Of a stretch of 64,000 bases of DNA, positions 59,070 to 62,642 are shown in pieces. The stretch is from an uncultured Verrucomicrobiae bacterium (GTDB lineage: Bacteria; Verrucomicrobiota; Verrucomicrobiia; Palsa-1439). Numbering within the stretch: the stretch's first letter is position 1; each line of letters opens with the position of its first letter. The stretch spans positions 640,001 through 704,000 of the forward strand of contig CAWEWF010000014.1 in assembly GCA_963812605.1 (NCBI GenBank), given 5' to 3'. The notes beneath the pieces are model-generated. The model searched no databases and had not been told where the DNA came from. It saw only the letters and a program-made list of their open reading frames with translations. A program made the translations under genes and the position numbers.

Positions 59070-59525
59070 TCACTTTTTGGGTGTCAGCGGCGTGTAATAG
59101 TAGATGACCGTGTAGGTGGCCGGGACTTTGCCGGGATTGCGCAGGCGGGTGGTGGCGTGAGACGCGAAAAAGATGACCGAACCCGGCCCGACAGTTTCCG
59201 ATTGTCCATCATAGGTCGCCTCGACGGTGCCTTCCTTGACGACGACAATCTCCTCTTGCAGATGCAAGCGCGGCTCCCCGCTTTGTTGGCCGGGATTGAG
59301 GGTGGTAATGTGGCAATTGATCTTGTCGAGCGTCGCGGTGGGCCCATCAAACACGAGCCGGCGCACGCCGTTTGACACCGTCAACGGCTGCGTTTTCTCC
59401 CAATCGTAAATGGCAGAAAGCAACGCTGGCTGGTTGGAGGATGTGGAGGACACGTTCGTTGGCGTTTGCGCCAAAAGTGCCGCGCAGAGACTAATCAATG
59501 CAACTGAACAGAGAATCGTCTTCAT
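59070..59525 (-). CDS. Secreted cupin-domain protein
   Basis: Signal peptide; motifs HITTLNPG, HLQEEIVVVKEG and GPGSVIF. Confidence 0.85.
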   Translation of the reverse strand: MKTILCSVALISLCAALLAQTPTNVSSTSSNQPALLSAIYDWEKTQPLTVSNGVRRLVFDGPTATLDKINCHITTLNPGQQSGEPRLHLQEEIVVVKEGTVEATYDGQSETVGPGSVIFFASHATTRLRNPGKVPATYTVIYYYTPLTPKK

Positions 59526-59634
59526 AGTGTCCTTGCGGTTGTGCGCCTGCGTTTCCTTTATCGCGCAACGAGTCTACGCGTTTCATCCTCCGTTCGCAGC
59601 CAAAATATTCGCCATGAACACTGATGCTGTAAGA

Positions 59635-59659
59635 CGGAGGGCCACGCTCCGTCGTGGCC
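59635..59659. repeat. REP, left member of the inverted pair flanking RAYT2 (unoccupied IS110 target)
   Basis: CGGAGGGCCACGCTCCGTCGTGGCC is the exact reverse complement of 60187-60208 joined to 61412-61414. Confidence 0.9.
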
Positions 59660-59677
59660 GCGTCCGAATGCGTCTAT

Positions 59678-60156
59678 TCAATCGCGCCACTCCAACACAT
59701 TCAACTCGCCCTGATACGGCCAATCTTCAACTTTGGTGACGAACCCATACCGCACCGGATTTTGCCGGATATAGTTCCACTTGTCTTCGTAACTATCGCT
59801 TCGTCGCAGTTGAGTCTCCAAAAGGCTTTCTGCCACACGGGTTGTTCAGCCAAGCGCGGCCACTGACACGATGCACGCGATTTCCAGAATTGCACCCACT
59901 TCTCAGAGAGACGGGCTCGACGCTATCGGGTGAACAAAATAGATGAATATGGTCCGGCATCAGGACGTATCCGGCCAATTGTCCACGCGTCCGCCACTTG
60001 CCAGGTTGCCAGCAAAAGATGATGGACATCACCGCAAGCGAGAACGGGTTTGCGCTTGTCCGCACAGACCGTGAGGTAGACGATCGTTGAACGATTGTGA
60101 GAAGGCAGCGGCGGTAGATAAATCGGCCTCTTGCGTTTAGGTAGTTTCCCGCCCAT
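59678..60156 (-). mobile_element. REP-associated tyrosine transposase RAYT2 (frameshifts)
   Basis: Motifs IVYLTVC, YVLMPDHIHLF, VWQ and KWNYIRQNPVR...WPYQGE; flanked by inverted REPs. Confidence 0.88.
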
Positions 60157-60186
60157 GTCACATTGAGGCATCCGCTCTATCGCGTC

Positions 60187-60208
60187 GGCCACGACGGAGC
60201 GTGGCCCT
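60187..60208. repeat. REP, right member of the pair, split by the IS110 insertion
   Basis: GGCCACGACGGAGCGTGGCC-CT; the remaining CCG resumes at 61412. Confidence 0.9.
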
Positions 60209-60224
60209 TGTATCTAGAATTTTT

Positions 60225-60450
60225 GGTACTCTCTGGCTTGGTTTCCCACCGGTGTGGGAGCGACAGGATGGCCCTTGGGGGCATGCCCCCCAAGGGCGCG
60301 CGGAAGTGATCGTCGTGGCCCTCGGTTCGGTTCAGACCTGTCCGTTTGGAGCTGGATCCATCCGCGTTGCCTGTCGGTACGCTCGAACAGTTGCCAGAGC
60401 GGCGGTCGCGCCCATCCGCGCCACCACCAGCTCGCATTGCAAGGAGGAGT
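60225..60450 (+). ncRNA. Predicted bridge RNA (ends approximate)
   Basis: Guides CGTGGCCCT (60314-60322), TTTGGAG (60345-60351), ACAGTTGC (60387-60394) and TGCAAG (60438-60443) sit in two internal loops closed by stems. Confidence 0.85.
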
Positions 60451-60456
60451 CTAACC

Positions 60457-61398
60457 ATGTTGCCATCGATCGTCTACGTCGGAATGGATGTCGCCAAACT
60501 CACCCTGGATCTGCACGCCGCCAGCGGATCCCGCGCGCAGTTCCGTCAGTTTCCCAACCACCCTCAGGGCCACCGCGCCTTGGTGCGTTGGCTGCAAGCT
60601 CTGGGATCCGTGCACGTCATCGGCGAAGCCACAGGCGGCTATGAACGCGCCGTCGTGGCCGCCCTGCACGCGGCCGGTGTAGTGGTTTCGGTAGTCAACG
60701 CGCGTCACGTGCGCGACTTCGCCCGCGCCACCGGTCGGCTGGCCAAGACTGACCAACTGGATGCCGCCGTGCTGGCGGCTTACGGCGCCGCCGTACGCCC
60801 GGCCGGCACCGCCGCGTTGAGCGCCGCCCAGAGTCAACTGGCGGAGTTGGTCACCCGTCGCCAACAAGTCCTGGCGCTGCGCGTGGCCGAGCACAACCGC
60901 TTGGAGCATCTCACCCACCCCGACGCCCGCCGGCAGATCCAGCGCCACCTCAGCCAACTGGATCGACACCTGGAACAGCTCGCCGCGTGGATCGCCGCCT
61001 TGGTCCAAGCCGAGCCCGCGCTGGCGCAGAAAGTCGCCCGACTCTGTTCGGTGGTCGGCGTGGGACGCCTGACGGCCGTCGTGCTGTTGGCGCTGCTGCC
61101 GGAATTGGGCACGCTGAATCGGCGCCAGGCCGCGGCGCTGGCGGGTGTGGCTCCCTTCAATCGCGACAGTGGTCCGCATCGGGGACGCCGACAAATCGGC
61201 GGAGGACGGCCCGCCGCCCGGCGGGCCTTGTACATGTCGGCTCTGGTGGCGGCCTTTCGCCACCCGCAATTGCAGCCCTTCTATCAACGCTTGGTGGCCA
61301 AGGGCAAGGCCCCCAAAGTCGCCCCGGTCGCCGTCATGCGCAAACTCATCATCTTACTCAATCGCCTGCTCCAAGAACCTACTTTCCAACCCTTATGA
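60457..61398 (+). CDS. IS110-family DEDD recombinase/transposase, 313 aa, intact
   Basis: Motifs VGMDVAK, GEATGGY and AKTDQLDA (DEDD); C-terminal GVAPFNRDSG carries the catalytic-type Ser; RBS AGGAGG. Confidence 0.96.
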   Translation: MLPSIVYVGMDVAKLTLDLHAASGSRAQFRQFPNHPQGHRALVRWLQALGSVHVIGEATGGYERAVVAALHAAGVVVSVVNARHVRDFARATGRLAKTDQLDAAVLAAYGAAVRPAGTAALSAAQSQLAELVTRRQQVLALRVAEHNRLEHLTHPDARRQIQRHLSQLDRHLEQLAAWIAALVQAEPALAQKVARLCSVVGVGRLTAVVLLALLPELGTLNRRQAAALAGVAPFNRDSGPHRGRRQIGGGRPAARRALYMSALVAAFRHPQLQPFYQRLVAKGKAPKVAPVAVMRKLIILLNRLLQEPTFQPL

Positions 61399-61439
61399 AA
61401 AGACAGTTGCTCCGAAGGACAAAACGACACACGACCACT

Positions 61440-62642
61440 TCAATCCGCCTTGGGCAGTTCGCCTTTTTTATAGTAGTCGAGCGACTGCTGCAAAAATGCT
61501 TTCTCGGTGCCTTCCGCGAGATCCACTGCTTTTTCCTGCAATTCAATGGCCTTCTCTTTCTTGCCCTCCAGGAACAATACTCGGGCCAACGTGTCGAGGA
61601 TGGGGGCGTTCTTGCCCAAGGTCGCGTCGTTGGCACGCGTGGCGATGGTTTCCGCCAGGGGCAGGTCACGCTGCTCAATGGTCTTGTCGGTCGCAAGCCG
61701 CCAGGCCATATCGTTTTGCATGGCCGGATTGTCCTTGTGGGTCTCGCTTATTTGCGCGGCCAGCTTGTAGGCCTGCGGGTACTCCTTGATAAGAAGCAGG
61801 ATGTTGAGCCGCGTCATGTCCAGTTCGTCCTGCAATCTCGGGTCACCCTTGTGGGTCTCTTTCATTGTCGCAGCCAGCTTGTCTGCTCCCGCATTATCCT
61901 TCTGGCCAACCAGAATGCTGAATCGCGTTAGATCCAGCCCGGCTCGCTGGTTCTCCGGCAATACCTTTTCCTCTTCGTCGAGCGCGGCAGCCGCCTTGTC
62001 CCAATCTTTCTCCCGTATCGCCTGGCTGACGGCGGTGCGTAAGGGGCGCAACTGCGTCTCGCTGCGCTGCTTCTCCGCGAACTCCTTCGCGGCCGTTGAT
62101 ATATCGAATGTGCCGGCCAACACATCGTCGATCACTGTTTCTTGCAATGCCATCGGGTGCCCGATCCAGGCAATGACGCCGTTACCGTTCACCAGAAATG
62201 CCGTCGGGATCCCATTTTGCCCCGCGGCGGTCATCCAGGTTTCGGACATCTTGCCATTCTCACTGCCCTGCTTGTCGTCAAGCGCCACACGATAGGTCAT
62301 ATTGTCGCCCATGGTCTTGACGAACGGCGCCACCAAATTGTCGTCGCGTTCCCAGCAGTTTTGGCCGATGACCACGAGGCCTTTGCCTTTGTACTTGTTG
62401 TAAATCTCGTTCAGGTGCGGGATCGAGGCGCGGCACGGGCCGCACCAGGTGGCCCAGAATTCGACGATATAGGTCGTCCCCTTCGCGAACTCTTTCACGG
62501 GATCGCCCTGCACCCATTTGCCGTTTTGGAGCTTCGGGGCCGGATCGCCCACCTTGAGAGTTGGCTCAGCCGCCCGTGCGAGCGTGGACGTTGCGATTAG
62601 GAACAGTACCGACGAGAACCACTTCATAGTACTTCGATTCAT
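61440..62642 (-). CDS. TlpA-like thioredoxin-fold protein with C-terminal helical/TPR region
   Basis: Signal peptide; motifs VEFWATWCGPC and GIPTAFLV; C-terminal ILDTLARV. Confidence 0.88.
   Translation of the reverse strand: MNRSTMKWFSSVLFLIATSTLARAAEPTLKVGDPAPKLQNGKWVQGDPVKEFAKGTTYIVEFWATWCGPCRASIPHLNEIYNKYKGKGLVVIGQNCWERDDNLVAPFVKTMGDNMTYRVALDDKQGSENGKMSETWMTAAGQNGIPTAFLVNGNGVIAWIGHPMALQETVIDDVLAGTFDISTAAKEFAEKQRSETQLRPLRTAVSQAIREKDWDKAAAALDEEEKVLPENQRAGLDLTRFSILVGQKDNAGADKLAATMKETHKGDPRLQDELDMTRLNILLLIKEYPQAYKLAAQISETHKDNPAMQNDMAWRLATDKTIEQRDLPLAETIATRANDATLGKNAPILDTLARVLFLEGKKEKAIELQEKAVDLAEGTEKAFLQQSLDYYKKGELPKAD

Follow-up and report, generated by a model that had tools for sequence, protein, structure and literature searches.

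Bridge RNAs have been predicted in thousands of insertion sequences of the IS110 group, and the targeting of repetitive extragenic palindromic (REP) sequences by such elements is known, as given in PMC11208160. The closest described member is IS621, for which PMC11208158 gives an active site of D11, E60, D102, D105 and S241 with G242; ISPpu10 and ISPpu9 of Pseudomonas putida are, by their published descriptions, REP-targeting elements that insert beside a G+C-rich stem-loop. Here, we analysed a stretch of 64,000 nucleotides from an uncultured Verrucomicrobiae bacterium (assembly GCA_963812605.1, contig CAWEWF010000014.1, positions 640,001 to 704,000), referred to as the window throughout, which carries a 1203-bp IS110-group element at 60209-61411 on the forward strand. 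The element consists of a 248-nt left end, the gene of a 313-aa DEDD plus Ser recombinase and a 13-nt right end. Its sequence makes it very likely that it moves by bridge-RNA-guided recombination in the manner of IS621. In the mechanism proposed, the left end would encode an RNA with two internal loops; the guides of the target loop would together specify CGTGGCC-CT-CCAAA at the 3′ foot of a REP hairpin, and the donor loop would present ACAGUUGC and AU..CAAG, thereby specifying the junction made when the ends of the excised element are joined, ACAGTTG-CT-TGTAT. Carrying this RNA, the recombinase would then exchange strands at the CT core, and the outcome would be an orientation-specific insertion with no duplication beyond the core. 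We infer that the RNA is transcribed, that a circular intermediate is formed and that the window copy is active at present.

The element was found inserted at a CT core in the 3′ foot of a REP hairpin. The left junction reads ...GGCCACGACGGAGCGTGGCC-CT|TGTATCTAGAA... (60187-60219) and the right junction ...GAAAAGACAGTTG-CT|CCGAAGG... (61397-61418), the first bases of the element being TGTATCT (from 60209) and its last ACAGTTG-CT (61403-61411), and the left flank ends with CGTGGCC-CT (60200-60208) and the right flank begins with CCGAA (61412). The excision of 60209-61411 in silico gave GGCCACGACGGAGCGTGGCCCTCCG, which is identical at 25 of 25 positions to the reverse complement of 59635-59659. 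A first-pass annotation made from the letters of the window had claimed exactly this, that the site without the element is the inverse of the REP copy at 59635-59659, and the strings and coordinates that it gave for the guides, flanks and element ends were all recovered in a scripted string check. The sole long frame of the element spans 60457-61398 and has GGAGGAG just 5′ to it. The protein encoded by this frame matched PF01548 (DEDD_Tnp_IS110) over residues 8-151 (E = 1.7e-24, 86.8 bits against a cut-off of 29) and PF02371 over residues 194-277 (E = 4.6e-15, 56.2 bits against a cut-off of 21.3), and scored 201.1 bits with the NCBIfam model NF033542, “IS110 family RNA-guided transposase,” for which the curated cut-off is 140. 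Its residues 5-300, to which the comparison is limited, aligned with the solved structures of IS621 (8wt6, E = 3.9e-39) and ISCro4 (9t56, E = 1.6e-38). The catalytic residues D11, E57, D99, D102 and S238-G239 were present and aligned to D11, E60, D102, D105 and S241-G242 of IS621, the numbering of the PDB chain being offset by +2. The Pfam, NF033542 and IS621 results agree with the first reading of the protein as a DEDD plus Ser recombinase. The features that define the IS110 group were thus observed, namely a DEDD domain with the four acidic residues, Ser-Gly in the Tnp domain, a long left and a short right end and site- and orientation-specific insertion with a CT core at 5/5 left and 4/4 right junctions.

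The search for further copies covered the element's own genome (15 contigs, 4.17 Mb) and returned four full copies and one truncated copy. The left flanks of all five end with ACGGAGCGTGGCC-CT, and the right flanks of the four full copies begin with CCGAA, CCAGA, CCAAC and CCAAG. Because the outer flanks of the copies are unrelated, the ends of the element are well defined. Insertion of other copies at unrelated sites had been named in the first-pass annotation as a result that would speak against guided insertion; all five copies stood behind the same CGTGGCC-CT. In addition, the 11-mer CGTGGCC-CT-CC occurs unoccupied at 15 further places in the genome, 10 of them within this REP hairpin, whose loop is variant in one case.

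The structure of the left-end RNA was predicted with RNAalifold from ten left ends (window, seven full relatives and two partial ones), and the consensus of 59 pairs comprises a 5′ stem-loop, a G+C-rich second stem-loop, a first module, a 16-nt linker and a second module of the same plan. In the first module, a base stem, which in the window reads GCGGAAG.GATC / GATC.CATCCGC, is followed by a large internal loop and then by an inner stem-loop. The helices GCGCGGA/TCCGCGT, GATC/GATC, CGG/CCG and GAGC/GCTC, named in the first-pass annotation, were recovered when 60209-60456 was folded, both in the single-sequence fold and in the consensus fold. The paired fraction of consensus cells was 97.3% as against 89.2% in shuffles, and fell to 34-51% when the partners were slid by 1-3 columns. 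Furthermore, 15 consensus pairs showed changes on both sides, and the covariation score of 0.269 (0.132 for shuffles) was reached by 0/500 shuffles. The energy of the single-sequence fold was not exceptional (z = -1.61; 10/200 shuffles fold as well), and therefore the support for the structure comes from comparison and not from energy.

The four guide strings proposed at first reading, CGTGGCCCT (60314-60322), TTTGGAG (60345-60351), ACAGTTGC (60387-60394) and TGCAAG (60438-60443), were found to be the two sides of the two internal loops, which are both closed by stems and split by a stem-loop (helices 4, 6 and 8). The 5′ side of the first loop, the left target guide (LTG), is same-sense to the left target plus core (9/9) and its 3′ side, the right target guide (RTG), is antisense to the core plus right target. 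In the second loop, the left donor guide (LDG) is same-sense to its donor (8/8), and the right donor guide (RDG), AU-UG-CAAG, is antisense to the right donor in a discontiguous manner. The two-loop architecture of IS621-type bridge RNAs that had been proposed for this left end therefore stands, now with covarying stems. Two details were refined. The RTG pairs with the right target of the window at 6/7 positions plus one wobble, so the claimed pairing of TTTGGAG with CTCCGAA through one wobble is correct, but its perfect complement is CTCCAAA and the other copies carry CCAGA, CCAAC and CCAAG. Similarly, the conserved pairing of the RDG, given earlier as TGCAAG, is AU-NN-CAAG, the middle bases varying among relatives (TG, CG, GC and CA). 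The C at 60352, directly after the RTG, could form a pair with the G at donor position 7 in the way of the IS621 handshake guide, and the G directly after the RDG could do so with target C7; both of these positions are invariant in the clade. When the target guides were scored as the same-sense match to left target plus core together with an antisense match to core plus right target 18-45 nt downstream, the pair reached 15/16, which was equalled by 1/2000 left-end shuffles and by 0/3000 random 248-mers of the same genome. The donor-guide pair reached 13/16 and was equalled by 21/2000 shuffles and 50/3000 random 248-mers, that is, by 1-2% of controls. The two scores were not reached jointly in either control. 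As far as sequence can tell, this locus shows every testable feature by which the IS110 group and bridge RNAs are defined.

The guides were further compared with those of relatives, for which one genome per species was scanned and the best 80 of 150 loci were retained. Relatives at 59-74% identity came from Verrucomicrobiae metagenome-assembled genomes (MAGs); their ends are the same (TGTATCT... and ...GACAGTTG-CT) but they lie at different hairpins, with the target-loop strings changed to match. The window element carries CGTGGCCCT as LTG and TTTGGAG as RTG for the site CGTGGCC-CT-CCAAx. The corresponding LTG, RTG and site are TCCAGCCCT, TTTGTAG and TCCAGCC-CT-ACAAA in L009; AGTCGCCCT, TTGGTAG and AGCCGCC-CT-ACCAA in L015, where only one position differs, a U facing a G of the bottom strand; and TCCCGCCCT with TTTGTAG in both L030 and L031, at TCGCGCC-CT-ACTAC and TCGCGCC-CT-ACAAT, respectively. 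Over 24 clade sites, 347 of 384 guide positions were Watson-Crick, 18 wobble and 19 mismatched. In an all-versus-all scoring of 22 representative elements, drawn from 51 with both ends assigned, the cognate pairs of left end and target had a mean of 13.3/16, whereas non-cognate pairs had 10.85 (standard deviation 0.99). The check on guide and target covariation recommended at the outset thus gave guides and targets that change together. The donor ends ACAGTTG-CT and CT-TGTATCT were unchanged across the whole Verrucomicrobiae clade and most distant relatives, and where the donor end differs the donor guide tracks it, as seen for ACAGCTG with ACAGCTGCC (L063), ACAGTCG with ACAGTCGCT (L087) and ACAACTG with ACAACTGCC (L060). 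Comparison of these sequences indicates that only the target loop has been reprogrammed and that the donor code is common to the family; of the specificity of its own ascribed to this element in the first-pass annotation, the target part is upheld, and the donor part is family-typical and not private.

Homology of the RNA beyond the clade was examined with a covariance model, R1, for which the two loop modules (target and donor) of nine clade members were used. The search took in 45 of the 55 loci L034-L088 and left out extra copies from genomes already represented (L064, L065, L067-L070, L072, L083, L085 and L088). Full-length plus-strand matches ending just before the gene were obtained at E ≤ 1 in 24/45 distant loci, 19 of them at E < 0.01, and the matched loci came from Gammaproteobacteria, Chloroflexota, Gemmatimonadota, Deinococcus and others. 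On its own genome, R1 found the five element copies only.

A number of results weigh against bridge-RNA-guided movement of this element. The stem covariation comes from about four independent lineages and is taken as support and not as proof; the 3-bp base stem closing the donor-binding loop (DBL, helix 7) is invariant and so gains no support from covariation. A scan of 59400-61800 against Rfam 15 at E ≤ 10 returned no match beyond chance, the bridge RNA family being perhaps not in Rfam; its matches to SNORD2, the PA5194 thermometer, SAM_alpha and the Hsp70 IRES were at chance level with none near the gathering score and were set aside. The sequencing runs matching the stretch comprised 18 DNA rows, of which 3 contained at least half of the words, and no RNA run was among those listed. 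A scan of the integrated form for sigma-70-like promoters gave 0 sites, and the canonical junction promoter TTGACx-17-TATCTT was not found in the joined ends of the Verrucomicrobiae clade. The circle junction ACAGTTGCTTGTAT has 0 occurrences in the assembly, though an assembly would be expected to lack it, and its absence carries no information. The guides fit poorly in L011 and L012, with 3 and 4 mismatches in the LTG, respectively; half-matched insertion is reported for IS621 in the published description. The cognate target ranked first in only 13/22 elements and second in 7; among the misses are sister elements whose guides are nearly identical and, probably, some elements whose ends were wrongly placed. 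For distant loci, the ends were defined by regular expression and not from empty sites, and hence errors are probable in some of them, L045 being one example. The regular expressions covered 47/80 loci; 30 were excluded for having no TGTAT-type left end or ACAG..GCT-type right end or for being cut by a contig end, and L035, L055 and L061 were dropped for short flanks. Because the targets are repeats, ungapped extension between copies overshoots the ends, which were therefore read by eye.

To these are added single-base defects, which may be real or assembly errors. The G-run of the second 5′ stem-loop has 5 G opposite 6 C in the window copy and in the copy on contig C8, a G at 60276 lacking, and has 6 G in the other three copies and in metagenome contigs of the runs X1 and X2. 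In one full copy (C4a), the gene lacks 1 nt at the equivalent of 60807, and the truncated copy (C4b, L005, G000:C4:364702-365426) is identical to the element up to about 727 and continues into unrelated sequence. If these defects are real, the family could be a genuine bridge-RNA family of which this copy, or every copy in the genome, has recently died and no longer moves. This is improbable, as the copies differ at only 8 alignment columns, and the lost G is probably a homopolymer assembly error, because the contigs carry the extra G and, in the adjacent gene, similar insertions after 59817 and 59904. The term “intact” used in the first-pass annotation is, for the window copy, nevertheless unproven, its conserved hairpin being one G short. 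The contigs came from four soil-metagenome runs of one study (X1-X4), one of which may be the sample of origin of the genome, and were compared with 59700-61900. No joint was listed among them, hence neither an empty-site form nor the circle junction at the window locus, and the parts of the stretch that they leave uncovered are not informative; an X1 record resembling the empty site proved to be the other REP copy at 59635-59659. However, one 152-nt X1 contig joins 122 letters of another flank to 60204-60233, and this flank is an empty site in the assembly on the same contig as the window (C14, minus strand near 117308), CGCAGCC-CT-CCAGG, whose four departures from the guides are 4/4 wobble-compatible. 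Its element side amounts to 30 letters, one below the threshold for a bridging record; 5 of these are shared with the empty site, and the other 25 are the first bases of the element. The contig is taken as a hint of an insertion polymorphism or a recent insertion and not as a finding.

The guide-like strings could also be non-functional relics, either captured REP fragments or a by-product of repeated insertion, with the protein alone selecting the REP. The targets are indeed repeated hairpins, the foot of a hairpin being found at 26/50 sites examined as against 151/5000 random positions (50 of the 51 sites were counted, L073 being out for its short flank), and in the Verrucomicrobiae clade a perfect hairpin arm of at least 7 nt occurs at 19/24 sites; a protein or structure component in the target choice of ISPpu10 is reported in 10.64898/2026.03.19.712850. 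Against this, differently targeted relatives carry matching strings at homologous columns, same-sense and antisense according to the IS621 scheme, the strings sit in internal loops between covarying stems, and the donor guide covaries with changes of the donor end. Furthermore, RNA is required in IS621 biochemistry, according to PMC11208160. The relic explanation is thus very improbable, and the strings are better understood as guides. Membership in the IS1111 group (seekRNA type, whose guide RNA lies downstream of the gene), which shares both Pfam domains, is hardly credible and was rejected, since the long guide-bearing right end is absent, only 13 nt following the stop codon and the left end being 248 nt with all four guides upstream of the gene, whereas for IS1111 elements PMC11208160 describes a long right end and subterminal inverted repeats of 7-17 bp.

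The RNA was compared with that of IS621 by way of published descriptions (PMC11208160 and PMC11208158). On this basis, the two elements share the DEDD RuvC-like domain and the Tnp domain with Ser-Gly, the CT core, a left-end RNA with target-binding and donor-binding internal loops, a target module of 66 nt here and 65 nt in IS621, a donor module of 65 nt here and 68 nt in IS621, an LTG of 9 nt preceded by a CGU linker, an LDG of 8 nt, a discontiguous RDG (AU...G-CAAG), a left end that is long and a right end that is short, and REP targets. They differ in the target, CGTGGCC-CT-CCAAA here versus ATCAGGC-CT-AC in IS621, in the RTG, 7 nt versus 4 nt, and in the spacing from AU to CAAG in the RDG, which is one base shorter here. 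The left end is 248 nt versus 191 nt and has two 5′ stem-loops versus one; the extra length is the second 5′ hairpin, and its invariant centre was found only inside element copies. The right end is 13 nt versus about 107 nt (298 minus 191) and, unlike that of IS621, has no TTGACx box. ISCro4 / IS622 belongs to the same fold family by sequence and comes from a host of a different phylum. The likeness to ISPpu10 and ISPpu9 is one of description, the left target here being the 3′ arm of the REP hairpin as compared with their target stem-loop. A literature search for IS110 together with Verrucomicrobia found neither term in the title or abstract of any paper listed, the supplementary ortholog catalogues lying outside that search.

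It is doubtful that the Verrucomicrobiae elements form a distinct architectural subtype of the bridge system, for which four features may be put forward. The second 5′ hairpin, with its GGGGGGCATGCCCCCC centre, may be tied by a helix to the target loop in a multi-branch domain. Transcription may start from a promoter whose -35 box (TTGCT|T) is the donor core junction itself, the usual -35 box of the right end being gone because only 13 nt separate the gene from the end of the element. In distant relatives, TTGACx-17-TATCTT/TATGTT (e.g. TTGACT) spans the joined ends in 12/20; in the clade, the best conserved alternative is a junction-spanning TTGCTT with a 17-nt spacer and TAnTnT preceded by TGG, albeit with a weak score. 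As the ribosome-binding site of the recombinase overlaps the 3′ strand of the donor loop, the guide RNA may be unable to fold while the enzyme is being translated from the same transcript, and vice versa. Finally, one donor loop with at least five target loops may constitute a natural allelic series. As bridge RNAs of the IS110 group are predicted by the thousand and REP targeting is known, the element opens no new question and is an ordinary member of the bridge-recombinase family. Its contribution is a compact bridge recombinase of 313 aa from a soil verrucomicrobium that is uncultured; the guide code is fully readable, and the RTG, at 7 nt, is naturally long. Its close relatives, differing almost only in the target loop, are a natural reprogramming experiment, and such a series would be useful for learning which non-guide changes of the RNA are tolerated and for choosing orthologues as candidate genome-editing enzymes.

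Table 1. Features of the IS110-group element and its insertion site, in window coordinates.
Feature	Position	Strand	Basis
Unoccupied REP copy, inverted, with intact target CGTGGCC-CT-CCG	59635-59659	-	Sequence; among the 15 free 11-mer sites (C14 699646)
REP hairpin GGCCACG-ACGGAG-CGTGGCC, 3′ arm = left target	60187-60206	+	Sequence, hairpin count
Left target (7 nt) plus CT core, CGTGGCC-CT	60200-60208	+	Identical in 5/5 copies
IS110-group insertion sequence, 1203 bp	60209-61411	+	Boundaries from four full copies with unrelated flanks
Left end, 248 nt, predicted to encode the bridge RNA	60209-60456	+	Fold, alignment, covariation
5′ stem-loop 1	60243-60260	+	Helix 1: 4/6 pairs changed on both sides
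5′ stem-loop 2, G+C-rich, invariant GGGGGGCATGCCCCCC centre; window without one G at 60276	60270-60297	+	Alignment, covariation, copies
Target-binding loop module: base stem, LTG, stem-loop, RTG	60300-60365	+	Helices 4 and 6; model R1
LTG CGUGGCCCU, 9/9 same-sense to left target plus core, invariant CGU before it	60314-60322	+	String check, alignment
RTG UUUGGAG, complement of CTCCAAA	60345-60351	+	String check, site pairing
Donor-binding loop module: 3-bp base stem CUC/GAG, LDG, long stem-loop, RDG	60382-60446	+	Helices 7 and 8
LDG ACAGUUGC, 8/8 to left donor plus first core base	60387-60394	+	String check
RDG AUUGCAAG: CAAG with CTTG, G-T wobble possible, AU with AT of CT-TGTAT	60436-60443	+	String check, alignment, IS621 scheme
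Shine-Dalgarno-like GGAGGAG, overlapping the RDG end and the 3′ strand of the DBL base stem	60443-60449	+	Invariant in aligned left ends
Recombinase gene, 313 aa plus stop	60457-61398	+	Frame, domain matches
Left donor (7 nt) plus CT core, ACAGTTG-CT; tip of the 13-nt right end	61403-61411	+	Sequence, copies
Right target CCGAA	61412-61416	+	Sequence, copies

Next to the element, a gene resembling a REP-associated tyrosine transposase (RAYT) lies at 59681-60192 on the minus strand and is read in three frames. It matched NCBIfam NF047646 in its C-terminal piece (E = 2.2e-09) and in its HUH piece (E = 0.056), and its two fragments had no Pfam match even at E ≤ 1. The gene is bracketed by inverted REP copies at 59635-59659 and 60187-60211 (restored), the insertion sequence sitting in one of them. 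Its frameshifts are probably assembly errors, because the metagenome contigs carry +C after 59817 and +G after 59904. The genome also contains two further IS110-family genes of another type (L089, C8:247427-247861, minus strand; L090, C4:305619-306053, plus strand), which matched PF01548 with 105 and 101 bits, respectively; R1 had no match to either.

Among the relatives, one Verrucomicrobiae MAG carries at least 19 copies of one related element (L015-L033) at three variants of a perfect 9-10-bp palindromic hairpin, GGCGGCTTGG/CCAAGCCGCC, GGCGCTTTCG/CGAAAGCGCC and GGCGCGTTCG/CGAACGCGCC. An element in a Dehalococcoidia MAG (L044) has AT at the left junction and CT at the right, and its LTG, ATAGGACAT, matches 9/9 including the AT, as would be expected were the core of the target kept at the left junction and the guide adapted to a target core other than CT. 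In a betaproteobacterial MAG (L083), a full copy is immediately preceded by 36 nt that repeat the element's own left tip, with the joint ...GTGAA-CT-TGTATC, which looks like insertion into, or recombination with, the left end of another copy.

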